Shown here: piece after piece, positions 10,783 to 33,319 of the stretch
How positions within the stretch are numbered: the first letter of the stretch is position 1
Layout: each line of letters opens with the position of its first letter
Origin: Chitinispirillaceae bacterium
GTDB lineage: Bacteria > Fibrobacterota > Chitinivibrionia > Chitinivibrionales > Chitinispirillaceae
Length of the DNA: 64,000 bases
Direction: 5' to 3'
NCBI GenBank assembly: GCA_016929595.1
Contig: JAFGIN010000044.1
Span: 14,269-78,268, forward strand
The notes under the pieces: generated by a model
The model's database searches: none
What the model was told of the DNA's origin: nothing
The model's input: only the letters and a program-made list of their open reading frames with translations
Translations under genes and position numbers: made by a program

Positions 10783-11040
10783 ATGGCACACTATTTCACC
10801 AGTGGTCAGGTGGCCAGGCAATTACGCGTTTCGATTTCAACGCTTAAACGATGGCTTGAAGGATCAGAAGTCAAAATTCCTGATGTCCGCAACGAAAATG
10901 GCTGGAGACTGTTTTCAGTTGAAGATCTTGAAACCCTGAAAGATTTTAAACGAAACCTTCGAAAAAACGGTAAGCGTTTCAACGATACAACATTACTTCC
11001 AGTATGTTTTGACCACTCAGAAGAAATAGTAAATGGATAG
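10783..11040 (+). CDS. Small MerR-superfamily HTH DNA-binding protein. It is the likely regulator at the head of the co-directional supercluster.
   Basis: The ATG at 10783 is preceded by AAGGAG at 10772-10777. The HTH is FTSGQVARQLRVSISTLKRWLEG, followed by the MerR-like stretch WRLFSVEDLETLKDF. Confidence 0.6.
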   Translation: MAHYFTSGQVARQLRVSISTLKRWLEGSEVKIPDVRNENGWRLFSVEDLETLKDFKRNLRKNGKRFNDTTLLPVCFDHSEEIVNG

Positions 11041-12142
11041 ACAGATGATCATTCCCACTTTTAATGTACCGACAATATTTATCCTCATTACTGTTCTGTG
11101 TTTCATTCTAACTTCGCCTCAGGCTCAAAGTATAAAACGGGGCCGGAATGAGGGCACCAGTAATATTGCAGCTTCCAACGTAACAGGAAGTGGAAATATC
11201 AGCCTTAAAGCGAACATTAAAAGCCGCTATGACGGCAAAGGTTTCGGTAGTGACCCGGATGGTTCATTGACCGTGGGGATCGGAGAGCTTCTTCAATTCA
11301 GCGGTGCTGTTTCTCTTTCAAATTTCAAATCACTGGGATCCGCTCGTGCTGATGCACAAATTACTCTTCCCGGAAATAATTCCCTACGATTTTTTGGTAT
11401 GGCACTTCAGGGATCATTGTTCCTCTCCACTGAAATTGACACCGTAAGCTCTTCAGCAGCATCAGGCAAGCCGGAGTATCATTCGTATATACGTCCATCA
11501 ATGGTTTTCGATCTTGACTGGATCTCACATTTTAAAAAGTTTCCATTAAAGACATATCTCTGGTTGGGTTCTTATGATAATGCAGATCTGCTTTTTAAAT
11601 ATTCTCAATGTGCTGTTCGGATGGGTTTTGAATGGCGAAATATTAAAAATAGTTATTTTACAGATATTGGCCTTGGATTCTACAAGGAGAAAAAAACACG
11701 TTCAAACCCGGGTGATAAAAATTTTGCTCAGCAAACATTCTGGATCGAGCCGGGGGCACGATATCGTTTATTCAACAGGATTAGCCTGCTTGGCGCATTA
11801 AGAGTACTTGTACTTCAAAAAACAAAACCGGTAAACGGTCTTATTCCAAATTACATCAGACTTACAATGGGTATTGAAATACCTCTAATATACAAAGAAA
11901 CAAATACGGAAGCTATCCGCACAATGATATTCATCGAAAATCAGAAAATTAAACATCTGGACATTATAAGTAGATCTATCAACGAGCAGAAAAAGATGAA
12001 AACTGATTTCGAAATAAACTTCGATAATCTCGAAAATGATATAAGTCAGGAAACAGATGAGCAGGAATCATTAAAGCGACGTGAAGAGATAAAGGCAAAA
12101 ATGGATGAAATTGAGCATATACTGGAGACTCTTGATGAATAA
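11033..12142 (+). CDS. Hypothetical secreted beta-rich protein with an acidic coiled-coil C-terminal tail.
   Basis: The N-terminal signal or TM segment, an alternating beta-strand pattern, and a charged C-terminus (ESLKRREEIKAKMDEIEHILETLDE). It overlaps the next gene. Confidence 0.5.
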   Translation: MDRQMIIPTFNVPTIFILITVLCFILTSPQAQSIKRGRNEGTSNIAASNVTGSGNISLKANIKSRYDGKGFGSDPDGSLTVGIGELLQFSGAVSLSNFKSLGSARADAQITLPGNNSLRFFGMALQGSLFLSTEIDTVSSSAASGKPEYHSYIRPSMVFDLDWISHFKKFPLKTYLWLGSYDNADLLFKYSQCAVRMGFEWRNIKNSYFTDIGLGFYKEKKTRSNPGDKNFAQQTFWIEPGARYRLFNRISLLGALRVLVLQKTKPVNGLIPNYIRLTMGIEIPLIYKETNTEAIRTMIFIENQKIKHLDIISRSINEQKKMKTDFEINFDNLENDISQETDEQESLKRREEIKAKMDEIEHILETLDE

Positions 12143-13307
12143 TATAATTACTTTAGTTGTACTTATTTCATTATCATCGTTCTGCGGCGAAAACCAGAAA
12201 CGTAACAGAGGTGAGCCGTTTTATAATTGCCTTAATTCCAACACATCAGGACATGGAAATATCTGGATATCATTGAGTGCTACAGGACATGTCTGGGATG
12301 ACAGCCCGGTTACTCTTGATTCCAATTCTGTTAAAGGTAAATGGATTTCAAATGTAAGAGCATTCCCGGAGGTCAGAGCCCATGCCGGTCTTTTTGATAT
12401 CGCATCATTGTCTCTGGAATCAAGAATTCTAGGAAATTTCTGGAATCCAGGCTGGATTTCTATGAACTGTAAGCTTACTACTCCCAACAATAAAAAGTTA
12501 AGAATTCATGGATGGGCGTTTGACATTAAATACAAATATCAGTTTATTGAAAATGGTCCAACACTTGGAGGATATACAGGTTTCATGCCGGAAGGTTTTG
12601 TTTCAAAAGGACACACATTAGAAAGCAGACTTATTTATGAACTAGATCTTCTTCCGTTAACAAGTAACCTGCCACTTCGTTTTATCGTCAATAGCGGTTT
12701 ACGTATCCCCTTGAGACAGGATCGTCGGGATTTCAAACAGTTTCTAACAGATATTGCAGTTGTTTACAGCGGGTACGGATTTGACTTCTATGCAGCTTAT
12801 TCCCTTGAAGCGTTCAACAATCTGACGAAGCCTGCTGTATTGAAAATAGATACATACAAAAAGATAGCAGTTTTTTTCCCGGAAAATCCAATGTACCTGA
12901 CCTTTGGAGGAAAGTTACGATACGATAATGGATTGGTTCTTGCAGTAGCAACACCAATTCTTTTAAGCACAAATCGTGAATCAAAAATGACTGTTAAAGA
13001 CCATTCTGATTTACACCGTCATCGTAGTGACCTTTTTCCGCAAGAGGTCAATCTGGGTATTAAAGATCCGTTTGATCCATGGTTTATTAAGTGGAAAATT
13101 GTGGGATCGATATCTTTTCCAATCAGGTATAGTATGACCTCGTCTGAACTTATGCGCAATTTTCTGCTTTTAAAAAACAGAAAACAGGACAAAAAAATTG
13201 ACATTGATAAAAGATTATTTAAAACAGTTCAGGAAAATGATTCTATGGAAATTGACGACAAAGCACGACTTGAAAATATCCTGAAAAGAAAATCAGAGAT
13301 CAGGTAA
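12105..13307 (+). CDS. Hypothetical secreted beta-rich protein with a charged C-terminal tail. It may be a distant paralog of the previous gene.
   Basis: The signal or TM segment (IITLVVLISLSSFCG), beta-rich core, and a C-terminal Lys/Asp-rich tail. Confidence 0.5.
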   Translation: MKLSIYWRLLMNNIITLVVLISLSSFCGENQKRNRGEPFYNCLNSNTSGHGNIWISLSATGHVWDDSPVTLDSNSVKGKWISNVRAFPEVRAHAGLFDIASLSLESRILGNFWNPGWISMNCKLTTPNNKKLRIHGWAFDIKYKYQFIENGPTLGGYTGFMPEGFVSKGHTLESRLIYELDLLPLTSNLPLRFIVNSGLRIPLRQDRRDFKQFLTDIAVVYSGYGFDFYAAYSLEAFNNLTKPAVLKIDTYKKIAVFFPENPMYLTFGGKLRYDNGLVLAVATPILLSTNRESKMTVKDHSDLHRHRSDLFPQEVNLGIKDPFDPWFIKWKIVGSISFPIRYSMTSSELMRNFLLLKNRKQDKKIDIDKRLFKTVQENDSMEIDDKARLENILKRKSEIR

Positions 13308-13329
13308 ACTAACTATTTTTTTAATAATT

Positions 13330-16300
13330 ATGAAAAAGAGTTATCTGAATACAACGTTTTTATGCATAGGTATGCTGCTTGCAATTGCAGGTAATTCTGT
13401 TTCATCTGTTACTACGAACGATTCCATGAGCTTGAAAAAAAGAGAACAGCTTGTTTTCAGACTTGGCTCTGAATGGTACAAAATTGGATTATTGAAAAGA
13501 GATCTGACCTTTATTTCGAACATTCTGGAAGATCTCAGGAATCTTGAGCTGTTTCCTCTTTCATGTACCGGACTTGATGAAAAGGAGCTTATAAATTTTG
13601 ACAAACAGATTGAAAAAGTAGAAATTGTCAATAGCATATTCAACAAAGAGATCAATGGTTTGAAGCAACCTCTTTCGGATGCGTTATCTATAACCAGGGA
13701 AATGGTAACCGGTGAACCTGTTGAAAGTATGTTTGAGGTTCTGGAAGATGGAGATCTGAAACGAATCGATAATATGATCAGAATTAAACGTGGTATTGAT
13801 AAAAACTTCAAATCTATCGATACGCTGCTATCTTTCCTTTTTCAGAATGCAGGGTTAAGAGATTCCTCAAAAACGACCGCCACTGCATTTGATAATGAGT
13901 TTTTTGAGATTTTAAAATCCAACCTTGGACAGACAGCAAATGACTATTTCGCTAAACTTAATACTCTCAAGATCCACTATTTAAGTAAAGCTGATTCCAC
14001 ACAAACCATGGAAATGTTCAAAATAGAGCGACACCACCTGACAGAAACAATAAAAAAGAAAAGTTACGAAGCCGCCCTTCGCAATGCCGAAGAACTAATA
14101 GTGCGATACGAAAACAGTATTGACATCGATGAGATCCGATTACTAGTTGCACAACTGCATACCGTTAAAGAAGATTATCTCAAAGTTCTTGAAGATATTT
14201 CAAAAATATCTGAAACGAAGCTTCATTCTCAGAAAATTACACATTACCGGTTCCAGGCCTTGTATGCGCTTGGAAGATACAACGATATAATCGATCTATC
14301 TGCTGAAACAGATTTTTCAACCATCTCTGAATCCAGTAGAAATCTTCTTATCTGGATAACATTGGAAAGCGTTACAGCTCTACAAATGCTTGACTTTTCT
14401 CCGTCAACATTAATAACAGGACTAGTCAGGAACCAGCCCTATTCATTACATGTCATGCACGCTTTATCAAAATTTTTTCTCGCAAAAAAAGACACATCGA
14501 CTGCGATGTCTGTTCTTCTTAATACTCATACATATCAGGCAATAACATATGAAGATGAACGTGCCCGTGAGAGAATTGATCTTTCAATCGCATGGATAAA
14601 TTATCAGAACAAAAAATATGATGATGCACTTGCTCAGTTCTATCAACTTCTAAAAAAAGAGTCACTATACGAAGATGCTCTTACCGGTATTTTATGGTGT
14701 TACATCAAAACAAACCAGAATGAAAAAGCAGATGCAGCTTTAAAAAAGCTCATTAATCAATCCCCACAATCAGCCCTCGCTGCTGAAGGTATCCTCATTC
14801 TTGCAGGGCGTTATCTTGACAAAGCCATATCGTCCTGGAAAAAATCAGTATATTTGTCCAACGAAGAATCCCGTCTTGAAAATATGTTCATGAGGCTTGA
14901 ACAAAAATTCAGTAATGACTCGCTCAATGAGCAATATCAGACTTACATCATAGCACGTGAAGAATTGAAAACTCTTAAGCAAAGGATTAAACAGGAACCA
15001 CGGGCATCTTATGAACAGATCTTTTCTTATTATGAACAGATCGAAAAGGTATGTAATCTGATAATACACCATTATAAGAGTGGAACTTTCCAGGAAACAT
15101 CATTTTCCAGAGAACGGGAGAAAATTCTTTTCTACCTTGACTCCATTCTTATTAAAATCAATAGTGATGAAAGTTTTTCTTTTTCTAAAAAAGAACTTTC
15201 CAGATCTTTGAAAAACCGTGCATCAATCAAAGCTGTGGTAGACAGGGCATTACTATTTTCAGCAGTTTCATCTATTGACAAATACAGATGGGAAAAAGAG
15301 TATTATGATTACAAAAAAACGGAACTGAGTAAAAAAATTCAGCAGCTCAGTTCAACTGTATCCCGCAGTCATGATTCTGTCCAGAGTGTAGAGTTAATGA
15401 AAGATTCACTTAACCGGAATATGAATACGATACTGATCGATGAGGAAAAAATCCATAACTATTATTACACATATCTATCTGAAAAATTAAAAGTCCTGAT
15501 CAATGCAAATATCGATTTTAATGAAAAAGCATATTTTCTATACCATCTTGGAGAGCTTGCTTATTCGAGGGAAAACCAGACTTTTTCAAAAGCGTATGAA
15601 GCGTATGAAGCTACATACTCTGATTACACCGATTCGTTGAAAAATTTCCGGAACGGATCCCTTCTTGCAATGCCAGTTGAACCTGCTGCTCCATCACTGA
15701 ATCATGACAGCAGCATCTCATATTTCACATCAGTCATTACTTTGCCGCAGCCGACCGAATATCTTCACGCAGCACAATACAGTCTTGCCTGGTGCTATAA
15801 TGATCTCGGGTTAATCGATAGCGCATTAAATCGATTTCACGCTGTCGCATTAGATTACCCATCCAGTCCGCATGCTCCGCAATCCTGGATGTACTGCGGA
15901 GAATATTTCTTTGATAAAGCAAAACTGGACACTGCTATTTCCTGTTATCATGCTGTTATGAGATATCCTGAAAGTAAATGGTTTGATGAAGCATTATACA
16001 AACAGGCCTGGGCACAATATCGACTTTCCAACCCGGAAAAAGCAATCAGCTCATTTCTTGCTCTTGTTGATCTTGGTGATGGAAACATGTCCGGAAAATC
16101 ATTGCTTGAAAAAGAATCAATGGATTACATCGCAATTAGTTTCAGTGAAACAGACCCAACAGGCTCTAAAGGTCTTGACCGGGCTGTAGCCTTTGCCAAT
16201 CGTATCAATGACAATTCCAAAAGCTGCAGAATTCTTCAGCGTCTGGCATCAGTATACAACGACCAGGGCAGATATGACATGTCCCGCAAAACACTTGAAA

Positions 16301-16809
16301 CAATATTGAAAATGAACCCTGAGTATTCAGGTAATCCTCAGGTTGATTACAGTTTAATTACGTTGACGGAACGAGACGAATCACCACTTGAGGTGAATCA
16401 GAAAAAATTTGAATTCTATAAAAAATATACTCTGCATTCGAAGTGGACTTCCAGCCAGAAAGACTCTGCCTTCAGAGCCAGAACCGACAGTCTGGCAGAA
16501 CGAATGCTTTATAGTTGTGCTATCGGATTTCATCAACTCGCTCTGCAGAAAAGTGATACAGAACACTACAAGGACGCCTTAAATGCATATAAGGAATATA
16601 TCCGTACATACCCCGGTAAATCATCAGCAAACGAATGTCATTACAATCTGGCCGAAATACAATTTTCAATAGGAAATTACAAGGAAGCGGCTGAGGAATA
16701 TATAGCGGTGTCAAAACGATATCCAGAAAGTAAGTACAAGGAAACAGCCGCCTGGAATGCGATTGTCGCATCCCAGAATTACCTGAAACAGGAAAGCAGC
16801 ACCAAATGA
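13330..16809 (+). CDS. Large (1159 aa) secreted TPR/YbgF-like repeat protein.
   Basis: Signal peptide, then many TPR-like helical repeats (for example YPESKWFDEALYKQAWAQYRLSNPEKAISSF and YPGKSSANECHYNLAEIQFSIGNYKEAAEEY). Confidence 0.7.
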   Translation: MKKSYLNTTFLCIGMLLAIAGNSVSSVTTNDSMSLKKREQLVFRLGSEWYKIGLLKRDLTFISNILEDLRNLELFPLSCTGLDEKELINFDKQIEKVEIVNSIFNKEINGLKQPLSDALSITREMVTGEPVESMFEVLEDGDLKRIDNMIRIKRGIDKNFKSIDTLLSFLFQNAGLRDSSKTTATAFDNEFFEILKSNLGQTANDYFAKLNTLKIHYLSKADSTQTMEMFKIERHHLTETIKKKSYEAALRNAEELIVRYENSIDIDEIRLLVAQLHTVKEDYLKVLEDISKISETKLHSQKITHYRFQALYALGRYNDIIDLSAETDFSTISESSRNLLIWITLESVTALQMLDFSPSTLITGLVRNQPYSLHVMHALSKFFLAKKDTSTAMSVLLNTHTYQAITYEDERARERIDLSIAWINYQNKKYDDALAQFYQLLKKESLYEDALTGILWCYIKTNQNEKADAALKKLINQSPQSALAAEGILILAGRYLDKAISSWKKSVYLSNEESRLENMFMRLEQKFSNDSLNEQYQTYIIAREELKTLKQRIKQEPRASYEQIFSYYEQIEKVCNLIIHHYKSGTFQETSFSREREKILFYLDSILIKINSDESFSFSKKELSRSLKNRASIKAVVDRALLFSAVSSIDKYRWEKEYYDYKKTELSKKIQQLSSTVSRSHDSVQSVELMKDSLNRNMNTILIDEEKIHNYYYTYLSEKLKVLINANIDFNEKAYFLYHLGELAYSRENQTFSKAYEAYEATYSDYTDSLKNFRNGSLLAMPVEPAAPSLNHDSSISYFTSVITLPQPTEYLHAAQYSLAWCYNDLGLIDSALNRFHAVALDYPSSPHAPQSWMYCGEYFFDKAKLDTAISCYHAVMRYPESKWFDEALYKQAWAQYRLSNPEKAISSFLALVDLGDGNMSGKSLLEKESMDYIAISFSETDPTGSKGLDRAVAFANRINDNSKSCRILQRLASVYNDQGRYDMSRKTLETILKMNPEYSGNPQVDYSLITLTERDESPLEVNQKKFEFYKKYTLHSKWTSSQKDSAFRARTDSLAERMLYSCAIGFHQLALQKSDTEHYKDALNAYKEYIRTYPGKSSANECHYNLAEIQFSIGNYKEAAEEYIAVSKRYPESKYKETAAWNAIVASQNYLKQESSTK

Positions 16810-19781
16810 TTATGTATCGTAAACCCATTAAACTGTTTACGAAACATCTCTTTTGTATCGTAGTTTCAACGGTATTCTTTTTTCAGGGTTGTTCATTTAT
16901 AAATTCGTTACACAAACCACAGATCGCTTCGGTTCAACCATCCGAAAAACAAATCAGTGCTGATACAGCTATTCATGACAAAAAATCTCTACAGGATACT
17001 ATTGAAGTTGATTCTGCAGAGAATCATTTTTCACCAGCCGCAAAGCTAGTTATCTCTGCCTGTGAAAACTATCTTGATGTAAATAGCGAGAGTCCAAAAA
17101 TCGCAGAAGTACTGACAATAATGGCATCACTTTACTATAATGCCCGTTTTTTTCCTAAGAGCAGGGATATTTATCAGAAAATTATCGAGCTGAATCCGCA
17201 CTCAGCACAGGCGATGGACGCGATGAGAATGATCGCTCAATCATTTTACGAAGAGAAGCAATTCACCGAAGCACAGATGTGGTACCGTAAGATCAGCGAA
17301 ATTGCACCTGACGGCATCAGTAAACAGGAAGCGCTCGCAAGAATCGCAGAATCAATTTTCAAATTCGCAGAGATGCATGAAGCAGAAAACAGATATAAGG
17401 AAGCTGCAGAACAGTATGAACGTGTAGCGCTTGAATTTCCTGATTCCCGTATTGCAGATGTGGCTCTGTTCAATGCAGGACTTGCTTACGAAAAACAAAC
17501 AGAATGGACCCACGCAATACTTTCTTTCCAAAGAATCATACAGAGATACCCGTCATCAAAACTGATAGCAAAAACTCAATTCAGAACCGCACGCGCGCAG
17601 GAAAAACTCCTCCAATGGGAAGTTGCTGCCCAGACCTATCTTCGTGTTGTCGCAGGTTTTCCTGAAAATGAGCTCGCACCGGCTGCGATGTATAATGCCG
17701 GATTCTGCTTTGAAAATGGGGAAAAGTTTTCTGAAGCTGCTGCAACATTTGAAAAGATGGCCTCCCTGTTTCCTGACTCTGAAGATGCTGCAGATGTTCT
17801 TTTCAGAGCCGGTGAGATTTACGGCCGTATCAAAGACTGGGAAAGCGTCAGCCGGGTTAATAAACTTTTCACTCAACGGTTTGGCAATGATCAGGACAGG
17901 ATTATTCAGGCCCAGTGCATGATTGGTATTGCACTGTACATGCAAAACAAAACAGATGAAGCATTAAGTCAACTCGGGAAAGCGCTCTCGACCTATTCAT
18001 CATTACAGGAACCAAGTACAATGAACTCCTATTACGCAGCGAAGACCACATTTACTATAGGAGAAATATATCACGACCTGATGAAAAAAGTTACTCTTTC
18101 CGAAAACCGCTCTTCATACAAAAAATCTCTTAAACAAAAATCATCTTTACTTGACTTTGCAGTAAAGGCTTATGTCAAAACGCTGCAATTTAAAATACTT
18201 GAATGGACCACCAGAACAGTCTGTCAACTTGGTCAGTTGCATGAGGACTTCGCGACCGGAATTTTTATGCAGGAGCGAGCGCAACACCTTTCTCTTGAAG
18301 ATAGAATTTCACTTGAGCTGGGCATTGCTAACGCCGTCGAACAATACCTGGTTGAAAAATCACTTCATTATCACGAGCAAAATGTCAAACTATCGATTAA
18401 AGAAAAAATTGAAGACAAATATGTACTTCAATCCCGGCGTAAACTTACGTATTTGCCCTATTTTGCGGCAGAGAATTATCTCGCACTTGTAGAGATAATT
18501 AAAAACGTAAATAAAAGTGATAAGCAGGAAGGGTTTGCTCTGATCGCAAAAAGACTCCAGATGTACCAGAAAATTGCTCCATTTCAGGAAAAAGCTATTG
18601 ATCTTTTTCTCAAGTCCCTGGAGATGGGCTCTACCTATGCAGAACAGGATGAGTATTATAAAAAATCAACAAAGATGGTTACCGGTATAGCTTTCACTGT
18701 AGGAGAAACCTATTATGACATAGTATCAATCGCCAGAGATGCACCAGTTCCGTCAACATTTAATCAGTATGAACGATTTGTTTACAAAACAAAACTGATC
18801 AAACAGGTAGAAGATTACGAGAGTCAGGCATTAACAAACTACCTCAAAGCGCTTAAGATTTCAGAAACGTATTCTATTGGAGACGACAACATTAAAATCG
18901 CGCGTGAACGGATCGCTGAACTGCTCTTTAAACGGGCCCGTTGTTATGATCTTCTCTGTCTTTCTGCTTTTAATGCTCCTCCCTATCCACCCGGTATCAA
19001 TGCCGCTGAACAGGAGGAATACAAGTTCCGATTTGAAGAGATCGGGTTAAAATTCCAGGAGCAGGCGTTTGATATTTACCGTGAAGTTCTGGCATATGAG
19101 CAAAAGCATTACGCATCAGGAAAATATGTCACCGATGCGTATGTAAGGCTGTTTCAAAACTTCCCCGATGAAATCGGTGTCATTACTGATGAACTTGTCA
19201 GTACAGCTATAAGTTCCGGCAATCAGTGGAAATGTACATCGGATTCTGTTGCATCCTGGGCTGATTTTGAATGCAATGACTCTGCATGGATGCAGGCACA
19301 TTTCACCTCTGAGATAATGCTTGATACCAGCAATACCTTTTCTGGCTCTGTTCCATCAACCATGTGGTGGGGTGATGGTGATCCCGGTCAGACCTCACAT
19401 TACCACCCGGCAGAAAAACTATTTTTCAGAAGAACGTTCACTGTTCCGGCAATGCCACATGAATCGAAACTGATTTTCGCCGGATGTGGAATTTACACAA
19501 TCTACCTTAACGGTAACCTCATTGGATCTGACAGTTCTAAAACAACGCCGATACCTGTCAAAAATTATGATCTTATGGGCAAAGTCCGAAGCGGAAAAAA
19601 CATTATTGCAATAAAAATCAGCTCATCAGGAGAACAATATGGTATCAAACCTTTGATTTTGTACACCACCGGCGCAAAAACATCGTATCCTAAACCACCG
19701 GGATACGACAAACCGCTCTCACTGGAGGAAGTACGTTTTGACAAATATGTTTTTCCAAAAATCGCTAACTTTGAGTTTTAG
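16806..19781 (+). CDS. Large (991 aa) TPR/YbgF-like repeat protein with a C-terminal galactose-binding-like (GH2 N-terminal sugar-binding jelly-roll-like) domain.
   Basis: The ATGA start/stop overlap with the upstream TPR gene. TPR repeats such as YPSSKLIAKTQFRTARAQEKLLQWEVAAQTY. A C-terminal stretch (LFFRRTFTVPA...IYTIYLNGNLIGS) resembles the GH2 sugar-binding domain (WYRRTF...VWVNG..VG). Confidence 0.65.
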   Translation: MIMYRKPIKLFTKHLFCIVVSTVFFFQGCSFINSLHKPQIASVQPSEKQISADTAIHDKKSLQDTIEVDSAENHFSPAAKLVISACENYLDVNSESPKIAEVLTIMASLYYNARFFPKSRDIYQKIIELNPHSAQAMDAMRMIAQSFYEEKQFTEAQMWYRKISEIAPDGISKQEALARIAESIFKFAEMHEAENRYKEAAEQYERVALEFPDSRIADVALFNAGLAYEKQTEWTHAILSFQRIIQRYPSSKLIAKTQFRTARAQEKLLQWEVAAQTYLRVVAGFPENELAPAAMYNAGFCFENGEKFSEAAATFEKMASLFPDSEDAADVLFRAGEIYGRIKDWESVSRVNKLFTQRFGNDQDRIIQAQCMIGIALYMQNKTDEALSQLGKALSTYSSLQEPSTMNSYYAAKTTFTIGEIYHDLMKKVTLSENRSSYKKSLKQKSSLLDFAVKAYVKTLQFKILEWTTRTVCQLGQLHEDFATGIFMQERAQHLSLEDRISLELGIANAVEQYLVEKSLHYHEQNVKLSIKEKIEDKYVLQSRRKLTYLPYFAAENYLALVEIIKNVNKSDKQEGFALIAKRLQMYQKIAPFQEKAIDLFLKSLEMGSTYAEQDEYYKKSTKMVTGIAFTVGETYYDIVSIARDAPVPSTFNQYERFVYKTKLIKQVEDYESQALTNYLKALKISETYSIGDDNIKIARERIAELLFKRARCYDLLCLSAFNAPPYPPGINAAEQEEYKFRFEEIGLKFQEQAFDIYREVLAYEQKHYASGKYVTDAYVRLFQNFPDEIGVITDELVSTAISSGNQWKCTSDSVASWADFECNDSAWMQAHFTSEIMLDTSNTFSGSVPSTMWWGDGDPGQTSHYHPAEKLFFRRTFTVPAMPHESKLIFAGCGIYTIYLNGNLIGSDSSKTTPIPVKNYDLMGKVRSGKNIIAIKISSSGEQYGIKPLILYTTGAKTSYPKPPGYDKPLSLEEVRFDKYVFPKIANFEF

Positions 19782-19795: not shown

Positions 19796-20113
19796 ATGAG
19801 CATCCTATTCAATAAAGGGAACATAAGGTTCTACTGCACTGTTATTATTACCATTGTCTTATGCTTCCCGGAAACAGTTTATAGCCAGGACACAGCATCA
19901 TCAGAACAGGATGAAAAAAACCAGATATATAAAATTGAAAAACCGGGAACAATTACTTTTACCGTTGGAGTTAAAATTAAAGGAAAAGTAGAAAAACCGC
20001 AGGTAATGATATTTCTTCCAAAAGAAAAATCTATCTACAAAGAACATGAGCTCAATCGATCATTTTCCAGTGAGCTTTCGCAACCACTGGATTTTACGCC
20101 ACTTATTGAGTAA
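19796..20113 (+). CDS. Small hypothetical secreted protein.
   Basis: An AAAGGAG Shine-Dalgarno site 7 nt upstream, and a hydrophobic N-terminus. Confidence 0.45.
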   Translation: MSILFNKGNIRFYCTVIITIVLCFPETVYSQDTASSEQDEKNQIYKIEKPGTITFTVGVKIKGKVEKPQVMIFLPKEKSIYKEHELNRSFSSELSQPLDFTPLIE

Positions 20114-20228
20114 CCTTAGCCTTGACTGGATTGCAGAACGAATGATACACTCTAATATACTATTATATCAGATAAAAAAACCGGCATTCTTCTGTAATTA
20201 GTCAATACTTACCGCACCGTTAGCAGGA

Positions 20229-23276: not shown

Positions 23277-23300
23277 CTATTTGCATTCTCCGGAGTAACT

Positions 23301-26356: not shown

Positions 26357-28161
26357 TGTCCTTTCATATAATCCCGGGAAACCTGCGTACATTTTCAGAG
26401 AACAAGCATTACAAAAAACTCTGGGGATCTGCTATATCCTCTGCTCCGTATCTTTTAAGAAAATTCATCAATTTTTTCTCATTTAAGCACAGTGGTGTTG
26501 AACGACTGATACAAAAGTGTTCAGAGAACGCCCGTATTATTGACTTCGGAGCAGGATCCTGCAGTTTCAGCAAGTATCTTGCATCCAGGCGTAACTTTAC
26601 CGTTATAGCCGTAGACTGGTCATACACCGCCTTAAAAAACGCCCATTTGAATTTCCCGAATGCCCGGATTCTACCAGTATGTGCCGATCTTCATTATCTG
26701 CCCTTTAAAAAAAATGCATTCTCAGCATTTATCACCATTGACACATTCGGACATCTCTACAATCAGGAAATGGCATTTGATTGTCTTCTTAATACTCTGC
26801 AACCGGGAGCCTGCGGTTTCTTTCATAGTGAGTGTGCTGATTACCGGAAACGCTGGCCGGATTCCATGTTACTGCGCAGGATTGGTCATGATATTCCAGC
26901 GGAATCCGACGGTCACATCTCCTTATTTCCGGGTGCTGCTATCCTACGAGCTCTTAAATGTCGATTTACTGTGCTATCCTCTTTTTCTCCGGCAGGATAC
27001 CTCGGCTGGTTAACGGGATACCCGGAAAAATATACGGAGGCATTTGCCCGTGCCGGAGATAAACCAATGTACCGGCTGACCAGTTTAATGGCCCACATGA
27101 AAAATCATCTCATTGGCAAATTACTTCTCAGAATTATCAACTATTCAACCAATCGTATTGAACTCTTTTTAAACCTTCAGGGCGGCGGATCTTTCTTTGC
27201 CGATGTGATTAAACCGGTAGAAGAGAAAAGGATAAATAAAACATCAATCGATATAATCATCCCTACATACCGCAGAGAAGAGCAACTTAACATCCTGATC
27301 GGACATCTTCTGCCACAATGTAAAGATCATGATACAATCATTATCATTTCTCAGGATCTATCCTTAACCTTGAAACACTCTTCCAGACATATTCATGTGC
27401 TCCATAATTTTCCTCCGAACCTCCCGGATGCCCGAAACAGAGGTGCACTCAGCGGAAACGGTGATATTATTCTGTTTCTCGATGATGATACTATACCATG
27501 TGATGCTCTGCTTGAAAAGCACCGCACTGCCTATCTGGACAAAACGATTAATTGTATTGCCGGATCGATTGCTGACACGCAATTCCCGACAACGGAACAA
27601 CCATCATTTTTCGATATTCATACAGGGAAGCTTATACAAAATTTCACATTCCCCGACATTTCATTTTCAATCAGTTTTATGGGTGCACACTTTTCATTGC
27701 GTCGCAGTGTTTTCGCAGAGACTGGCCTGTTCGATACCTCGTTTACCGGCAGTGCACACTGGGAAGATATCGATTATTCTTTTCGATTACAAAAAAAAGG
27801 GTATAGGATATATTACAATCCGGAAATCAGAGTTACCCATCTGAGCACAACCAGAGGCGGCTGCCGGTCAGTTACGCAATCGGCATTCTGCTTCAATTAT
27901 TTCACCAACTCTGCATATTTCTCACTGAAGTACGCACCTGTCCGGTATTATTCATCATGGTTTACTTACTGGAAGTACCGTATTGAATTTGAAACCCGCA
28001 CACATCAGGCAACAACATTTCCTAAACACAGTATATATCTCCTCAGCGCATCATTCCTTGGGATTGCAGCAGCAGCAGTCCGTTTTATTTGCAAAGGTAA
28101 AAGAGTCGGACTTCCTGAAACAGTTATTCACCAGTGTGATCCGGGACACAGCAACCTATGA
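26356..28161 (+). CDS. Bifunctional class I SAM-methyltransferase (N-terminal) and family-2 glycosyltransferase (C-terminal).
   Basis: N-terminal IDFGAGSCSFSKYLA...VIAVDWS (Rossmann MTase motif I). C-terminal IDIIIPTYRRE...FLDDDTIP (GT2 DxD). Confidence 0.75.
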   Translation: MSFHIIPGNLRTFSENKHYKKLWGSAISSAPYLLRKFINFFSFKHSGVERLIQKCSENARIIDFGAGSCSFSKYLASRRNFTVIAVDWSYTALKNAHLNFPNARILPVCADLHYLPFKKNAFSAFITIDTFGHLYNQEMAFDCLLNTLQPGACGFFHSECADYRKRWPDSMLLRRIGHDIPAESDGHISLFPGAAILRALKCRFTVLSSFSPAGYLGWLTGYPEKYTEAFARAGDKPMYRLTSLMAHMKNHLIGKLLLRIINYSTNRIELFLNLQGGGSFFADVIKPVEEKRINKTSIDIIIPTYRREEQLNILIGHLLPQCKDHDTIIIISQDLSLTLKHSSRHIHVLHNFPPNLPDARNRGALSGNGDIILFLDDDTIPCDALLEKHRTAYLDKTINCIAGSIADTQFPTTEQPSFFDIHTGKLIQNFTFPDISFSISFMGAHFSLRRSVFAETGLFDTSFTGSAHWEDIDYSFRLQKKGYRIYYNPEIRVTHLSTTRGGCRSVTQSAFCFNYFTNSAYFSLKYAPVRYYSSWFTYWKYRIEFETRTHQATTFPKHSIYLLSASFLGIAAAAVRFICKGKRVGLPETVIHQCDPGHSNL

Positions 28162-29261
28162 ATGTTGGATGGTTGTTTCCCGATAGAGAACGATGCGGCA
28201 TTGCAATCTACTCCCGAAACTATATTTCCGCACTAAAAAAGCATTGTGACATAAAATCGGTAAATAGTGACCAATGGCCGGACAGTCCGGAGAAATTCAG
28301 CGGAGATCTTAACAGCTGCGACTTGATTCACATTCAATATGAAAACTCACTTTTTGCAATGCGTAATCGCGATTACTATACTACTCTTTTACGTACACTA
28401 AAAAAGCCACTGATCGTGTCGCTCCATGAAGTGTACCGACATTTTCCAGGTGTTTTCCCACGGGATCAGATCAGGGGTGGAATTTTTGTATCATCAATTA
28501 AAAGGTGGTATTATGATTTCAGGCACCCTCTTCAAACTGCATATAATAAACACGTTTCATCCGGCTTCGGAGCATCAGTGCTGCTTGTCCATCACCACGC
28601 TCATAAAGAGATACTAGAGAAAAGGATACCACACAGCTGCCCGATACTCGTTTTACCACATCCGGTATTGAAAGTGAAACACATTGGTTTGGCCAATCGT
28701 TCACAAAAAGGATCTATTATGCTGGGTTCAACTGGTTTTATAAATCCGGAATTTGATTATCTTTTATTATTTGAGACACTTCAAAAATTAAATTGTGAGT
28801 GGAAGTTCTTATGGATCGGAGGGATTAGAATCCCGGAGCACCTGAAATTACTCGATAGTATTAACCAGGAGGTCAATAAAAGACACTGGAAAGATAAATT
28901 TATCATCACCGGCTGGGTCTCAGAAGAAACTCAGAATGACCTCCTTCAAAGCATTGATATCTATTGTGCATTTTTTAAAAACCGAAGCTCATCGGGCAGT
29001 CTGGCACGGGCGATAGGAGCATACCGGTTTATCATTGCCACAGAGTCTCATATTGTTCATGAAATAAACGTCTCCCGGAAAAACAACGTAATCACAGTGG
29101 TCAATGCAGACAGTAATCAGATTGCAGAAAAAATTGATTTCCTTTCAATTGATAAGACCTCACTTATGCAGCTTCAAACCCTGGATGATTATACTACCAC
29201 CTTTAATTTCGATACGATGGCCCTAACATTGATTAAATTGTATAAAAGCATCACACTGTAA
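28158..29261 (+). CDS. Putative glycosyltransferase (GT-B, group 1-like).
   Basis: ATGA coupling to the upstream gene, a weak GT-B C-terminal domain pattern, and operon context. Confidence 0.45.
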   Translation: MNVGWLFPDRERCGIAIYSRNYISALKKHCDIKSVNSDQWPDSPEKFSGDLNSCDLIHIQYENSLFAMRNRDYYTTLLRTLKKPLIVSLHEVYRHFPGVFPRDQIRGGIFVSSIKRWYYDFRHPLQTAYNKHVSSGFGASVLLVHHHAHKEILEKRIPHSCPILVLPHPVLKVKHIGLANRSQKGSIMLGSTGFINPEFDYLLLFETLQKLNCEWKFLWIGGIRIPEHLKLLDSINQEVNKRHWKDKFIITGWVSEETQNDLLQSIDIYCAFFKNRSSSGSLARAIGAYRFIIATESHIVHEINVSRKNNVITVVNADSNQIAEKIDFLSIDKTSLMQLQTLDDYTTTFNFDTMALTLIKLYKSITL

Positions 29262-29416
29262 GATAACACTAATTATTTTTGGAATAATTGCACGACCTCT
29301 GCTCATACTTTTATGTTTCGGACTGAGCGGCTCTACGTTGAAAAACCGTCTCTCCAGACAGTTGAATAGTGATCCGTTTCGGACTTTTCTAAAAACTTTC
29401 TCTCAGAACCAGCTCT

Positions 29417-30496
29417 ATGAAGAAAAAGAAGCGACTATTGTGGGATTTCCGTTTATATTCGACCACTTATGCAAAAAGGGGTGTTGGTACTTATTGTACT
29501 GCTCTTTGCAAACAATTATTTCCGCTACTCGAAGATTTCGACATCTATATCTGGGGCAACGTTAATAATGCACCAGAATTTCTCAGAAATGCACCGGTAC
29601 ACTGGATACCATATGATTCAACCTCATGGAAGAAGGATCTTTTCAGAATTCCCCTTCTGATTTACCGATTTAAGATCAGTATTTTTCATTACTGGATACA
29701 TCTGGGCCCCCTGGACAAATGTGGAACCGGCCTTTTCCACCCCTGCAGAACGATTGCGACAGTGTATGATCTTGGTGTTGAGTTGTGGGATCTGCCCCAT
29801 TCAAATATGATCAGGAAAAGGAAATTCTGGACTATTCAGAAAATTCTTTCAAAATCAATCAATACAATATGCGCTATTTCTTCTCACACAAAGAACGATT
29901 ACATTAAGCTGTTTTCACGAAAAGAGACATCTATTCAGATCATATATATGCCGCACGACCAGCCCCATTTCTATAAAAGAAATCTCGTTTCCCCCTATTT
30001 CCTGTTCCTTCGTGGCAGTGAACATAAAAATGAGAAGAATATTGTTGCTGCATTTCTTAAATTTCATGAAAAACACCCCTCTTACTCACTGATCCTGCTA
30101 GGTGAGAACGCAAGTGCTCATGATACTTCATTTTATACAAAGGAAAAGAACATTATCACCGAGCCATCCATGGATTATTATCATGATTATCTCTGTCATG
30201 CAACGGCTCTTCTTTTCTGTTCGTTTCAGGAAGGGTTCGGCATACCTCCGATTGAGGGAATGGCTGAAGGGTGTCCGCTGATAGTCTCCGATATTCCCCC
30301 TCTTCGGGAGACATGCGAAGACTCTGCGTTGTTTGTCGACCCGAATAATATTTGTCAAATTGAAGAAGCTATGATTGCATCAATTGAAAATAATACAAGC
30401 TGGTCGAAGAGATCATTTTCTGCAGGAAAAAGGTATCGCAGTAATTCATCAGAAAGTGCCCCGCATCTTTTGCAATGTTATAAGATGCTGACATAA
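29417..30496 (+). CDS. Glycosyltransferase family 1 (GT4-like).
   Basis: EGFGIPPIEGMAEGCPLIVSDIPPLRE matches the GT1 EX7E region. Confidence 0.8.
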   Translation: MKKKKRLLWDFRLYSTTYAKRGVGTYCTALCKQLFPLLEDFDIYIWGNVNNAPEFLRNAPVHWIPYDSTSWKKDLFRIPLLIYRFKISIFHYWIHLGPLDKCGTGLFHPCRTIATVYDLGVELWDLPHSNMIRKRKFWTIQKILSKSINTICAISSHTKNDYIKLFSRKETSIQIIYMPHDQPHFYKRNLVSPYFLFLRGSEHKNEKNIVAAFLKFHEKHPSYSLILLGENASAHDTSFYTKEKNIITEPSMDYYHDYLCHATALLFCSFQEGFGIPPIEGMAEGCPLIVSDIPPLRETCEDSALFVDPNNICQIEEAMIASIENNTSWSKRSFSAGKRYRSNSSESAPHLLQCYKMLT

Positions 30497-32229
30497 TGGA
30501 ACTGATATCAATTGTCATTCCAACTCATAACCGTTCGGCACAATTGGCTGCTTGTATTAATTCAATACTTTCGCAAGAAAACGCTCCTCCACCTCTGATT
30601 ATTGTTGTTGATGACGGTTCAATTGAAGTGCACGCCCGCTCTAACAGTGAATATTGTAAAAAAAATAATCTCATCTATATCTTTCTGCCGCAGTCAGTGG
30701 GTCTGGCAGCGGCAAGAAACCGCGGTATAGAAAGCTCAGACTCACATTGGATTGTATTTCTTGATGATAATGTCATTGTCGGGCAATCGTGGTTCCAACG
30801 AATTTCTGTACTACTTTCCACCTGCCCATCATCTCTGGCTGCAGTGGAAGTAAGAGTTGAACCATCCGATCAGATGAAGAACCTTTCAGGCGAAACATTT
30901 TTATCCTGCCACTTTGCTTGCCGGCGGGATCTACTGCTTGTTGAAAAGGGGTTTGACGAGCATTTCAAAGATCCCCATTGTATAGATCATGAACTTGCAG
31001 CTCGTCTGCTCGGTCATGGAGAGATCTTTTTTGCTGATGATATACATGTCACTCAACAGCAACGATCGTTTAGTCGCCTTAAATACCTTTTCTCAATCCG
31101 CAAAAAAATAAATATAGAGCTCCAGTCTGAATTTCGATTCTTCTCAAGGCACCCTGACCGTTATCATGCATTCAGAAAAAAAAGAACATTTCCGGGTACC
31201 GTTATATCACGTTGCTTATTCCCTATGATCCTTGAGCTCAGACGCAGGCCATTAAAACAAATAACTGAAAATATTCCCGATTGTATCCTGTTATGTATCA
31301 CAATCCTGTTCGAGCAGGTTTTTACCGTTTTCTGGGCAGCAAAACACCTATCACTTTTTTTCAACCCTCTCAGATCTTTTTTACACAATTATATTGAAGG
31401 CGACAGGACTCTGGCACTCTGGAAGATTACGGGTTCAGATCTGAAACCATTTACAATGAAAAGATGTTATATAAATGCAGCCACATTCCCGTTTTTTCGC
31501 CGTCCTGTTTACAATGCATACCATACACATAAAAAAATATCTTCAGGATCTCAACACAATGCATGTCAGATATTTGTTCGTATCGATGATCTTTTTTTTG
31601 ATGATACGGCAGCGATTGAACTCTTTTCAACCGTCATAAAAAAATTAAATATATCAGTAATGACAGCTGTTCGGGGAAATGATATTCTTAATGAAGAATA
31701 CCATCCTCTGCTTGAGAGACTTAAAGACTCGGGAATTTTTATTGGAATACATGGGTTTGTTCATGAAGGGACCTTTGGACCATTTGACAGTGAACTACTA
31801 CAAATGAAATACGGATCATTTGAAGCACAGATCTGTCTGGTTATCAGAACTCTGCATATATGGAAGCAAAAACATTCCATTCTTGTTCCGCCATTTAACG
31901 CTATCAACAGTTTGCAGATTGTACGCTGGTCAAAACTCTGCAGCATCATTTGCGGAGGCCCGGAAACAGCCCGATTTACCGGACAGGTGTATGGACCTGT
32001 TGCATTATCAGATGGAGGCTGGTATTTTCCTTCAGTACATCCGTTTTACGGAAATGCAGATGTCATGTTAAAAAATGGTGTTCCATCCATGATCGAAAAT
32101 CTCAAAGGTCCACTCTGTTTAACGATGCATTTTACGCAGGAAAGAAAAGATGGTTTTCGTTCCTTTACAAACCTGCTTGAGTGTATGCATCCACAAATTC
32201 ACTGTTGGGAAAAAACTAAAAACTGGTGA
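30496..32229 (+). CDS. Family-2 glycosyltransferase fused to a C-terminal polysaccharide-deacetylase-like (DUF2334-type) domain.
   Basis: N-terminal ISIVIPTHNRSAQLAACINSIL...VVDDGS. The C-terminal region (RIDDLFF...GIHGFVHE) resembles predicted deacetylase folds. Confidence 0.6.
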   Translation: MELISIVIPTHNRSAQLAACINSILSQENAPPPLIIVVDDGSIEVHARSNSEYCKKNNLIYIFLPQSVGLAAARNRGIESSDSHWIVFLDDNVIVGQSWFQRISVLLSTCPSSLAAVEVRVEPSDQMKNLSGETFLSCHFACRRDLLLVEKGFDEHFKDPHCIDHELAARLLGHGEIFFADDIHVTQQQRSFSRLKYLFSIRKKINIELQSEFRFFSRHPDRYHAFRKKRTFPGTVISRCLFPMILELRRRPLKQITENIPDCILLCITILFEQVFTVFWAAKHLSLFFNPLRSFLHNYIEGDRTLALWKITGSDLKPFTMKRCYINAATFPFFRRPVYNAYHTHKKISSGSQHNACQIFVRIDDLFFDDTAAIELFSTVIKKLNISVMTAVRGNDILNEEYHPLLERLKDSGIFIGIHGFVHEGTFGPFDSELLQMKYGSFEAQICLVIRTLHIWKQKHSILVPPFNAINSLQIVRWSKLCSIICGGPETARFTGQVYGPVALSDGGWYFPSVHPFYGNADVMLKNGVPSMIENLKGPLCLTMHFTQERKDGFRSFTNLLECMHPQIHCWEKTKNW

Positions 32230-32239
32230 GGTGCGTTGT

Positions 32240-33319
32240 ATGAAAATCTGGTTTGCAGCAGCAATTCCTCCCGATGCCAATGGCGGAGTCGCGCGTTCTG
32301 TCTGTGAACTGTCGACCAATCTCCGTAAGCGGGGTCATAAGGTTAAAGTTATTTTCGCAAACCATACATTAACCGAAAATTACATCCTGTTCTCTTTAAA
32401 AAATGCTATCATTCTCCTGTTTCATCTGTTTTCACCACCACAATGGGTGATCGCACGTTCTACCGATGGATTTTTTGCACTGGTTCTGGCACGATTACTG
32501 AGAATGAAAGTCCGTTTCGCCCTTCATAACCATGGATGGGAACAGAAGGTCTACGAACTGGAATCGACATTGCCGCGTGCAAAAGTTTCGAATCCAACAA
32601 CCTATAAAGCACATCTGCTGCGTTTTCCGCTTCTGCGTATCAATGCAATGCTTGCCGATGTCTGCATAAGCGGTACATTTGATGAAACACGCTGGCTGAA
32701 AAAACGGTCATTTACAAAGAAAGCTTCACTCGTTACTGTACCAAACGGCATACACCCGACAGAAAAAGCCTTCTGGCCACATCAAAAAGTAATTCCACCT
32801 TTTTTTCTGACAGTCGGGGCTTTTACTTGGAAGAAAAACCTCGAGTATGCCATAGGACTGTTTACAGAAATTTACAACGCATTTCCAGCCGCGCGAATGT
32901 TTTGTGTCGGAACAGATTCCTCCCACGATTCAATACAGATAACATCAAATGCAGTTCATGCTATCACTTTTATCAATAAAGAAACTCCGGAGAGAATTTT
33001 CCGCTGGTATGAAGAGTGCCCGTTTCTGCTTTCAACATCACGGTACGAGGGGGGCAGATCATTTGCAATTCTCGAAGCCCAGAGCCGTGGTATGATCGCA
33101 TGCTCCGTAAATATTCCATCATCAGGAGAGCAGATATGTCATAATCATTCAGGACTGCTTCTCGATGGCATCTCAATCGAATCTGATGCCAAAGTTGTTG
33201 TTGACTGCTTATCAGATGAAAATCTGATGCGCACAATTGGATTAAACGCATGGAAAAAAGCTCTTCGATGCAGATGGGATCGTCAGGTCGGGAGACTTGA
33301 GAGAGTTTTGAATACGTAA
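32240..33319 (+). CDS. Glycosyltransferase family 1 (GT4-like).
   Basis: STSRYEGGRSFAILEAQSRGMIACSVNIPSSGEQI. The start is placed at ATG 32240, just after the upstream stop. Confidence 0.75.
   Translation: MKIWFAAAIPPDANGGVARSVCELSTNLRKRGHKVKVIFANHTLTENYILFSLKNAIILLFHLFSPPQWVIARSTDGFFALVLARLLRMKVRFALHNHGWEQKVYELESTLPRAKVSNPTTYKAHLLRFPLLRINAMLADVCISGTFDETRWLKKRSFTKKASLVTVPNGIHPTEKAFWPHQKVIPPFFLTVGAFTWKKNLEYAIGLFTEIYNAFPAARMFCVGTDSSHDSIQITSNAVHAITFINKETPERIFRWYEECPFLLSTSRYEGGRSFAILEAQSRGMIACSVNIPSSGEQICHNHSGLLLDGISIESDAKVVVDCLSDENLMRTIGLNAWKKALRCRWDRQVGRLERVLNT

Follow-up and report, generated by a model that had tools for sequence, protein, structure and literature searches.

Does a proton motor encoded next to a polysaccharide exporter belong to the same machine? 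How 5:2 proton motors are coupled to events at the outer membrane (OM), beyond TonB-dependent receptors and Tol-Pal, is an open question, and a locus from a Chitinispirillaceae bacterium of the phylum Fibrobacterota (assembly GCA_016929595.1) raises it in concrete form. In the 64,000-nucleotide stretch analysed here (contig JAFGIN010000044.1, positions 14,269 to 78,268 of the forward strand; hereafter the window, the coordinates of which are used throughout), genes for an ExbB/ExbD/TonB-like motor driven by the proton motive force (PMF) run directly into genes for Wza/Wzc-type polysaccharide export. A first-pass annotation preferred to read the two as an energised secretion or surface-transport apparatus, with a housekeeping operon abutting an exopolysaccharide (EPS) operon as the alternative. 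We find that the Exb/TonB and Wza/Wzc blocks are very probably one selected unit. A single functional unit is favoured because the linkage to Wza/Wzc is conserved, including as a six-gene core in a distant lineage. We lean towards reading the 22.5-kb block as one conserved Fibrobacterota operon encoding two joined modules, a PMF machine of the Agl-Glt/Nfs type and a Wza/Wzc export and glycosyltransferase (GT) module, and it is on balance probable that the motor acts mechanically on the polymer or its exporter.

The map of open reading frames (ORFs), together with Pfam and NCBIfam scans, delimits a co-directional block of 18 genes on the + strand at 10783-33319. The single-strand arrangement described at first pass holds, while its count of 17 genes falls one short, S105 having been overlooked. 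The composition described there (a secreted pair, tetratricopeptide repeat (TPR) giants, ExbB, ExbDs, STAS, TonB_C, Wza, Wzc and five GTs) was reproduced. The features are as follows.

10609-10636, +: promoter-like site upstream of the MerR gene, TTGACA-16-TATAAT with extended -10 TG; 12/12 sigma-70 consensus match, a consensus match only
10783-11040, +: small MerR-type helix-turn-helix protein, first gene (Pfam MerR_1, E=7e-9)
11033-12142, +: U369, predicted secreted 12-stranded OM beta-barrel with a long C-terminal helical tail (369 aa)
12105-13307, +: U400, paralogous predicted 12-stranded OM beta-barrel with C-terminal helices (400 aa)
13330-16809, +: TPR1, 1159-aa periplasmic TPR scaffold (Pfam TPR families, signal peptide, present in all loci)
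16806-19781, +: TPR2, 991-aa probable lipoprotein, N-terminal YbgF/BamD-like TPRs and C-terminal beta-sandwich (TPR matches, FQGC lipobox-like sequence)
19796-20113, +: S105, 105-aa small secreted or anchored protein (ORF at the same position wherever visible, 65-127 bits)
20229-20873, +: ExbB/TolQ-type proton channel subunit with three transmembrane helices (Pfam MotA_ExbB PF01618, E=9e-27)
20891-21385, +: ExbD1, ExbD/TolR paralog with Asn at the proton-binding Asp position (Pfam ExbD)
21382-21702, +: STAS, SpoIIAA-like cytoplasmic protein encoded between the ExbD genes (Pfam STAS, E=5e-14)
21699-22217, +: ExbD2, ExbD/TolR paralog that keeps the invariant transmembrane Asp (Pfam ExbD)
22221-23276, +: TonB-like transducer, 351 aa, with a GltG-type (AgmX/PglI) C-terminal domain (NF033768, GltG and TonB_C matches)
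23301-24194, +: Wza-type protein for outer-membrane polysaccharide export (OPX), 297 aa, with Poly_export, two SLBB and a C-terminal hydrophobic helix (PF02563, PF10531, PF22461)
24110-26356, +: Wzc, polysaccharide co-polymerase fused to a bacterial tyrosine (BY) kinase (Wzz, GNVR, TIGR01007); start at 24110 (TTG) or 24194
26356-28161, +: MT-GT2, methyltransferase-GT2 fusion (Pfam)
28158-29261, +: GT1a, GT1/GT4 glycosyltransferase (Pfam, conserved order)
29417-30496, +: GT1b, GT1/GT4 glycosyltransferase (Pfam, conserved order)
30496-32229, +: GT2b, GT2 glycosyltransferase with a 460-aa C-terminal extension (Pfam)
32150-33319, +: GT1c, GT1/GT4 glycosyltransferase, last gene (Pfam, ORF map)

The tight packing noted earlier is confirmed. 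Four-base overlaps join TPR1/TPR2, ExbD1/STAS, STAS/ExbD2 and MT-GT2/GT1a, gaps of 3-24 bp are found at other junctions (24 bp between the TonB-like gene and wza), and the sole larger gaps are of 115 bp (20114-20228, before exbB) and 155 bp (29262-29416, within the glycosyltransferase part). An AAGGAG ribosome-binding site precedes the MerR ATG at 10783. In a consensus scan of the + strand, none of the intergenic gaps of the block, 23277-23300 included, contained a terminator-like hairpin; the interval between 23276 and 23301 had been singled out at first pass as the place to look for one.

Conservation of the motor-exporter linkage

The alignment of the TonB-like protein was scanned against one genome per GTDB species, with the window proteins as annotation queries, and recovered 37 loci, all from Fibrobacterota. 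The order U400-TPR1-TPR2-S105-ExbB-ExbD1-STAS-ExbD2-TonB-Wza-Wzc-GTs recurs in almost all of them and is identical even where the TonB-like protein is only 44-57% identical. Directly 3' of the TonB-like gene lies wza in 34 of the 36 informative species loci, at a median distance of 25 bp (range 4-97 bp). A reciprocal scan, in which the Wzc alignment was run against metagenomes, yielded 17 orthologous loci that are 58-70% identical, set apart by a clear break from the next matches, which reach 43% at most. Every one of the orthologous loci with upstream sequence (14/14) has the TonB-like gene and wza upstream of Wzc. The synteny comparison proposed at first pass thus finds the two blocks nearly always linked. 

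MerR, U369 and U400 precede TPR1 in three loci (L043, L044 and L125) whose upstream neighbours differ entirely, and the downstream neighbours also vary among loci, with the block boundaries fixed. Because the flanks differ on both sides and the boundaries are constant, the block is maintained while its surroundings turn over. The same order in dozens of species with differing flanks is far beyond chance.

The closest homologs of the TonB-like protein, U369 and U400 come from metagenome-assembled genomes (MAGs) of Chitinispirillaceae (74-95% identity), those from MAGs of Chitinivibrionales and 'Fibrobacter sp.' are about 50-57% identical, and all homologs belong to Fibrobacterota. The cultured Chitinispirillum alkaliphilum (GCA_001045525.1, contig LDWW01000004.1) has the same cluster, from the MerR gene through wza. 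Fibrobacter succinogenes itself is in none of the homolog match lists.

The most divergent instance is found on a 1.14-Mb JGI contig, Ga0164241_10000002 (L065; GC 57%; cluster region 1-22091), which a short contig (L063) resembles. Here ExbB, ExbD1, ExbD2, TonB, Wza and Wzc are encoded in this order and tightly packed. Identities to the window proteins range from 24 to 49% (ExbB 49%, ExbD1 38%, ExbD2 42%, Wza 44% and Wzc 33%), ExbD1 has the Asn and ExbD2 the Asp, and the TonB-like protein matches NF033768 with 69 bits. No gene for a TPR giant, a barrel, S105 or STAS is present near this core. Downstream of Wzc there are genes for Wzx, several glycosyltransferases and Wzy_C, a set that differs from that of the window. 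Since L065 retains exactly these six genes, the motor-transducer-Wza-Wzc core is the unit that survives the deepest divergence. Upstream of it, L065 encodes a 746-aa cytoplasmic protein with no family match, as well as an NtrC-type regulator and Obg; inspected by eye, the 746-aa protein may end in a degenerate GGDEF domain.

A different arrangement serves as a negative control. L068/L069 carries an ExbB-ExbD-ExbD-TonB-PBP operon of the type known from the Fibrobacteres-Chlorobi-Bacteroidetes (FCB) group, with a canonical TonB_C domain (64 bits in L069) and Asp in both ExbDs. Genes for GcvT, ComB, FtsK and other proteins separate it from an unrelated Wzc, 7 kb away. We considered this proximity as a further case of linkage and rejected it, the operon being a housekeeping one and the proximity a matter of chance.

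Components of the motor, the envelope assembly and the exporter

The top NCBIfam match of ExbB is tolQ (74 bits, under the cutoff of that model) and that of ExbD1 is tolR. The two ExbD paralogs differ in the residue that matters for proton binding. In ExbD1 the motif VMNLF is invariant across 38 loci (MMNIL in L065), and in ExbD2 the motif LxDVM is conserved, with an invariant D. The paralogs are barely alignable to one another and each has a 1:1 ortholog in L065; judging from these alignments, they are ancient and non-interchangeable. We considered the Asn/Asp asymmetry as a feature unique to this system and rejected the idea, since Asn-type ExbDs form a large family: Asn is found in 130 of the best 150 representatives of ExbD1-like clusters (1277 at E<=1e-3). 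As far as the compared sequences indicate, Asn in one ExbD is not general for two-ExbD operons either, the FCB-type control having Asp in both. The role of such Asn-type 'half-site' stators seems undiscussed in the literature that we consulted on these motors. 

The STAS protein has a near-invariant DSxGLG motif, in which D-S is invariant and which reads DSYCLG in a single locus (L030); DSxGLG corresponds to the phospho-serine motif of SpoIIAA-type proteins. Its gene is absent in L021, L026, L036 and L038, and also in L065. Being truly missing from four loci, STAS is best regarded as an accessory part.

The TonB-like transducer departs from TonB most clearly at its C-terminus. The last 90 residues score 95.3 bits (cutoff 40) with the NCBIfam model of the AgmX/PglI C-terminal domain (NF033768). 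Of the GltG model, only the C-terminal 95 residues are matched (E=1.4e-27), the full-length equivalog cutoff of 650 not being reached, and Pfam TonB_C is also detected (E=2e-9), along with a weak tolA match. The cytoplasmic N-terminal tail is 36 aa long, and the protein has no FHA domain. An alignment of 29 orthologs reveals an invariant S44xxxH48 in the transmembrane helix; SxxxH at this place is the signature of energised TonB/TolA-type transducers. The helix is followed by a short, variable, proline-poor linker and then by a periplasmic middle region of about 120 residues that is strikingly conserved. No domain of TonB-dependent receptors, the partners that the first-pass annotation had suggested checking for, occurs in the operon or anywhere else in the 64-kb window. 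Because of the AgmX/PglI C-terminal domain, the Asn-type ExbD1, the barrel pair and the sugar-binding-like TPR lipoprotein, the Exb/TonB block is not, to judge from its proteins, a nutrient-uptake TonB system.

U369 and U400, for which the Pfam scan gave no family match, are weak paralogs of each other in sequence comparison. Structure models (pLDDT, a per-residue model confidence, ~82 for both) predict a 12-stranded barrel with the fold of KdgM and NanC, which are oligosaccharide porins; matches to the barrels of autotransporters and FapF score equally. Just past the signal peptide, at the mature N-terminus, each has an invariant basic motif (KRGRNEG in U369 and QKRNRGE in U400), and the C-terminal helices are long and charged. 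Through the basic motifs and the helices, the barrels may dock to the TPR proteins or to the TonB-like domain.

TPR2 passes the cutoff of the NCBIfam model tol_pal_ybgF (93.4 bits versus 90.1). The profile of its C-terminal alignment matches residues 136-245 of the Streptomyces avermitilis rhamnosidase 3w5m (E=7e-15), which we take to be the region of the carbohydrate-binding module CBM67, and also matches the sugar-binding domains of GH2 enzymes. Single-sequence Pfam matches in this region are weak and under threshold. The C-terminal domain is therefore CBM67/GH2_N-like, a putative carbohydrate-binding-like beta-sandwich recognised at the profile level only; of the 'sugar-binding jelly-roll' ascribed to one TPR giant at first pass, this much is upheld by the profile matches, the single-sequence searches staying below threshold. 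In L043 (16203-19222) the position of TPR2 is taken by two ORFs of 341 and 659 aa with no Pfam matches, which could reflect a split, a frameshift or strong divergence.

In the export module, all loci share the 30-residue hydrophobic helix at the C-terminus of Wza (WFDWKTLLTVLNNALLFVVTIQTFAG), by which the protein would be Class-1-like in the OPX scheme of PMC9603273; it lacks a lipobox, however, and gave no match to Pfam Wza_C. Wzc matches TIGR01007 with 200 bits (cutoff 108), and in its alignment the Walker A motif and the C-terminal YGYYKYYYHYY are invariant, at a mean column identity of 69%. Orthologs of MT-GT2 are found in most loci, sometimes as split genes or without the methyltransferase. 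The extension of GT2b has very weak deacetylase-like matches only, and GT2b is 308 aa long in Fibrobacter-type loci.

Known machines and competing explanations

Large machines built around such motors are known from myxobacteria. Luciano et al. (2011, PMC3169522) defined a Glt 'core complex' (aglR, aglQ, aglS, gltC, gltD, gltE and gltG), which forms a single operon in F. succinogenes and certain proteobacteria. Outside myxobacteria no function has been assigned to it since 2011, and that paper, with 0 occurrences of the word 'polysaccharide', names no polysaccharide genes. Like the Glt core complex, the window operon has an ExbB-like gene, two ExbD-like genes, a gene for a GltG-like TonB protein and genes for large TPR proteins. 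The parallel with Glt/Nfs drawn at first pass thereby gains direct sequence support, in the 95-bit match to NF033768 (cutoff 40) and the match of the GltG C-terminus. 

The F. succinogenes core-complex genes are Fisuc_1892-1897 (PMC3169522). They encode TPR proteins of 746 and 1292 aa, ExbB, ExbD, ExbD and a TonB of 308 aa, with an OmpA-family gene upstream and neither STAS nor a small protein; the window has, in addition, a pair of 12-stranded barrels, STAS, S105 and the Wza/Wzc/GT block. Gene order and product names suggest that the Fisuc genes correspond to FSU_2397-2403. FSU_2396-2403 (TPR, OmpA, ExbB/ExbD/TonB) are more abundant on cellulose by proteomics and were read as a cellodextrin uptake system by Raut et al. 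(PMC6851124), and FSU_2396 and FSU_2397 were found in a multiprotein complex with cellulases (PMC6851124). We rejected orthology of our block with FSU_2396-2403/Fisuc_1892-1897, since protein sizes, gene order, the OmpA gene and the missing STAS and S105 all differ. The Fisuc_1892-1897 cluster is probably a paralogous branch, and its data are not carried over to the window locus.

As a functional precedent, the closest analogy is Agl-Nfs, a Glt-like complex powered by AglRQS via NfsG. On Myxococcus spores it moves and anchors Exo, the coat polymer exported by Wza, and this transport has been shown experimentally (Wartel et al. 2013, PMC3858216). Both systems have a TolQ/ExbB-like channel, two TolR/ExbD-like proteins, a TonB-like protein with the AgmX/PglI domain, large periplasmic TPR proteins and OM beta-barrels. 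The polymer on which Agl-Nfs acts is exported through a system of the Wza/Wzc type, and the window motor may act on such a polymer too. Several details differ. Both AglQ and AglS are reported to retain the transmembrane Asp (PMC9389320), whereas ExbD1 has Asn. GltG and NfsG have cytoplasmic FHA domains; the window protein has its 36-aa tail instead, and a STAS protein is encoded. The Myxococcus Exo OPX protein is of Class 3 and has an 18-stranded partner porin (PMC9603273), whereas the window Wza ends in a hydrophobic helix of its own. Agl-Glt is predicted to contain a GltA/GltB barrel pair docked through its N-terminal extensions on a TPR protein, a central TPR pillar to which the C-terminal domains of the TonB-like proteins bind, the small bridging protein GltF, and an AglQ/AglS heterodimer in an AglR pentamer (PMC11761067). 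By analogy, these parts may map one-to-one onto U369/U400, TPR2/TPR1, S105 and ExbD1/ExbD2-ExbB, homology being demonstrated for the motor and the C-terminal domain only. Like GltA and GltB (PMC11761067), the two paralogous window barrels have conserved N-terminal extensions.

Other relatives fit less well. With canonical and FCB-type ExbB-ExbD-TonB systems the operon shares the MotA_ExbB channel, ExbD-family plugs, SxxxH and a TonB_C-like fold; unlike canonical systems, it has no TonB-dependent receptor and no Pro-rich spacer, and it has a conserved middle region, a GltG-type C-terminus and an ExbD1 without the transmembrane Asp (D25 in canonical plug subunits), which ExbD2 keeps. The canonical uptake partner is a 22-stranded receptor with a plug and a TonB box, in contrast to the 12-stranded U369 and U400. 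The FCB-type control (L069) differs in its TonB_C score, in having Asp in both ExbDs and in the PBP gene downstream. Unlike in Tol-Pal, neither the TolB beta-propeller nor the OmpA-like lipoprotein Pal is encoded in the block or the window. The export module resembles the Wza-Wzc pair of the E. coli group 1 capsule: Poly_export, two SLBB domains and a C-terminal membrane helix in one protein, and a polysaccharide co-polymerase of class PCP-2a with BY-kinase, Walker A and Tyr-rich tail in the other. By contrast with E. coli Wza, the 297-aa window protein is no lipoprotein and has no detectable Pfam Wza_C, and the block lacks Wzb, Wzx, Wzy and an initiating transferase and has a PMF motor ahead of the Wza-Wzc pair. 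The E. coli group 1 genes vary with serotype; those of the window are conserved phylum-wide. Literature searches returned no description of a linkage between Exb/TonB and Wza/Wzc, or of a capsule locus, in Fibrobacterota. What is new here, going by the sequences, is the fusion in cis of a core motor of the Glt/Nfs type with a Wza/Wzc pathway, together with an Asn-type ExbD, STAS, 12-stranded barrels and a sugar-binding-like TPR lipoprotein.

Under the favoured interpretation, the first module would consist of a channel of the ExbB pentamer type, a plug formed by an ExbD1(Asn)/ExbD2(Asp) heterodimer and the GltG-type TonB-like transducer, spanning the envelope with two periplasmic TPR scaffolds (TPR2 as an OM-proximal lipoprotein), S105 and the two OM barrels. 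The second module, the Wza/Wzc pair with five glycosyltransferases, would make a polysaccharide, and its genes are unusually conserved across the phylum. Proton flow through the ExbB5/ExbD1-ExbD2 stator would be converted into conformational work in the TonB-like protein, whose middle region and C-terminal domain may engage the TPR/barrel assembly, Wza/Wzc, or both. The work could be spent on the exported polymer, by pulling, anchoring or spreading it on the cell surface or by gating its exit, and the system would be regulated by the MerR-type protein and probably by STAS. On this view the motor would power the polymer's secretion or its surface transport. A link of the motor module to polysaccharide is suggested by the CBM67/GH2_N-like domain of TPR2 and by the Agl-Nfs precedent, and a single operon by the lone consensus promoter and by gaps free of terminator-like sites. 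It is also conceivable, if doubtful, that the six-gene ExbB-ExbD(Asn)-ExbD(Asp)-GltG-type TonB-Wza-Wzc set represents a 'motorised' translocon, in which a 5:2 motor gates or pulls the polymer, ancestral to the Glt and Nfs machines.

Several observations weigh against two coupled modules. The linkage is not absolute: two species (L021 and L031) keep the motor/TPR block and have unrelated genes after the TonB-like gene, so the motor block needs no adjacent wza/wzc. What follows is trp genes on the opposite strand in L021 (11069-21065; JBBRUX010000035) and a 773-aa permease-like ORF, judged from sequence alone, in L031 (9918-14102; CAZEMW010000020). The synteny counts are inflated by shared ancestry, and several metagenome loci duplicate MAG loci. 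The block is without Wzx, Wzy and an initiating transferase; it contains no polytopic membrane protein, MurJ being the only one found in the window. For the TPR giants, which are of suitable size and carry export signals, NCBIfam did not return the GltC/D/E families, giving generic TPR, YbgF and BamD matches only. In Myxococcus, Agl-Nfs is not needed for Exo export itself (PMC3858216), and the aglRQS, nfs and exo loci are separate, as opposed to one operon here, so that the analogy predicts no operon fusion. ExbB and ExbD match TolQ and TolR best and TPR2 passes the tol_pal_ybgF cutoff, which makes a Tol-like, co-regulated role possible. Finally, we infer both that the motor touches Wza, Wzc or the polymer and what kind of work it would perform.

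The last-named similarities lead to the idea of an envelope-biogenesis supra-operon, in which Tol-Pal-like, PMF-driven OM maintenance or constriction is co-transcribed with core envelope glycan genes and no mechanical coupling exists. We consider this unlikely. The tolQ, tolR and ybgF matches and the weak tolA match point to it, as does the very high conservation of every gene across the phylum, which suggests a housekeeping envelope role. E. coli tol-pal mutants have O-antigen and capsule defects, and in two species the blocks are separate. TolB and Pal are, however, missing from the block and the window (none of TonB-dependent receptor, TolB, Pal, Wzx, Wzy and initiating transferase was found within the 64 kb, although TolB and Pal could be elsewhere in the genome), the C-terminal domain of the transducer is of the GltG type, and the ybgF score sums over generic TPR repeats. 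Co-regulation alone would not easily explain the unbroken six-gene motor-TonB-Wza-Wzc unit of L065. That fixed Wza/Wzc junction is left unexplained if the motor, TPR proteins and barrels serve adhesion to cellulose or chitin, or import of oligosaccharides from them, with the Wza/Wzc glycan as an adhesive glycocalyx only. Such a substrate-contact or uptake machine is suggested by the behaviour of FSU_2396-2403 on cellulose and their complex with cellulases (PMC6851124), by the porin-like fold of U369/U400, by the CBM-like domain of TPR2 and by the specialisation of the phylum in contact-dependent breakdown of insoluble polysaccharide. Yet the F. succinogenes cluster differs in architecture and is probably a paralog, the 12-stranded fold match is generic, with autotransporter and FapF barrels scoring the same, and the operon has no glycoside hydrolase or ABC sugar importer, all of which makes this explanation quite improbable.

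Very improbable, in our view, is a chance or inherited adjacency, that is, an ordinary TonB energising system beside an EPS operon, kept by shared ancestry only. All strongly syntenic loci do come from one phylum, and ExbB-ExbD-ExbD-TonB operons are common in the FCB group, with one of them (L068/L069) lying 7 kb from a Wzc gene. But the block has outlasted the turnover of the genes on either side of it, as has its TonB-to-Wza junction of 4-97 bp; the reciprocal test gave 14/14, and the junction is kept in a lineage with only 24-49% protein identity. The TonB-like protein is non-canonical, the Asp that both ExbDs of the FCB control have is missing from one of the ExbDs, and no TonB-dependent receptor is present. 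The alternative offered at first pass, an FCB-type housekeeping TPR-ExbB-ExbD-ExbD-TonB operon that happens to abut an EPS operon, is accordingly disfavoured: a real example of such an operon, that of L068/L069, looks different. The motor-coupled reading preferred there is backed on every genomic test that it proposed and is partly supported overall, its function being unproven.

A motor-Wza/Wzc operon gives a concrete, testable hypothesis of motor-assisted handling of exported polysaccharide, and with Chitinispirillum alkaliphilum a cultured host that has the cluster exists. It may bear on cell-surface organisation in Fibrobacterota, bacteria that need to be in close contact with cellulose or chitin and from which no motility apparatus is known. 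According to the F. succinogenes genome paper, motility has not been demonstrated, and none of the known motility genes turned up. If the coupling is only regulatory, the locus still defines a conserved envelope operon of the phylum, distinct from the paralogous FSU_2396-2403 cluster.

Neighbouring genes in the window

Upstream, the block is flanked by a metallophosphoesterase gene on the opposite strand, unrelated to it. The downstream flank is also on the opposite strand, its first gene convergent with GT1c, and comprises a gene for an FMN_bind protein together with a LolA-like/FtsX/ABC set. The cluster at 33860-39991 (- strand), directly after the operon and convergent with it, is a LolCDE-like or MacB-like set, in which two FtsX-type permeases and an ABC ATPase are encoded along with a LolA-like protein and an unannotated one of 447 aa.

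A second glycan-related cluster (53691-61408 on the - strand and 62132-63766 on the + strand) adjoins MurJ and lacks Wzx and Wzy. It encodes three SAM methyltransferases and a GT1, along with an asparagine-synthase-like amidotransferase and a fusion of TPR with GT2, and may supply or modify envelope glycans. At 45835-51843 (+) a P-type ATPase gene is followed by genes for three consecutive SPFH/Band-7 proteins (650, 192 and 414 aa). A 438-aa fusion of PTS EIIA_2 with a DisA_N diadenylate cyclase domain is encoded at 4482-5798 (-); such a protein would couple the phosphorylation state of the sugar phosphotransferase system (PTS) to c-di-AMP synthesis. Finally, a YidD domain (membrane protein insertion efficiency factor), usually a protein of about 80 aa, is found in a 399-aa protein encoded at 2250-3449 (-).

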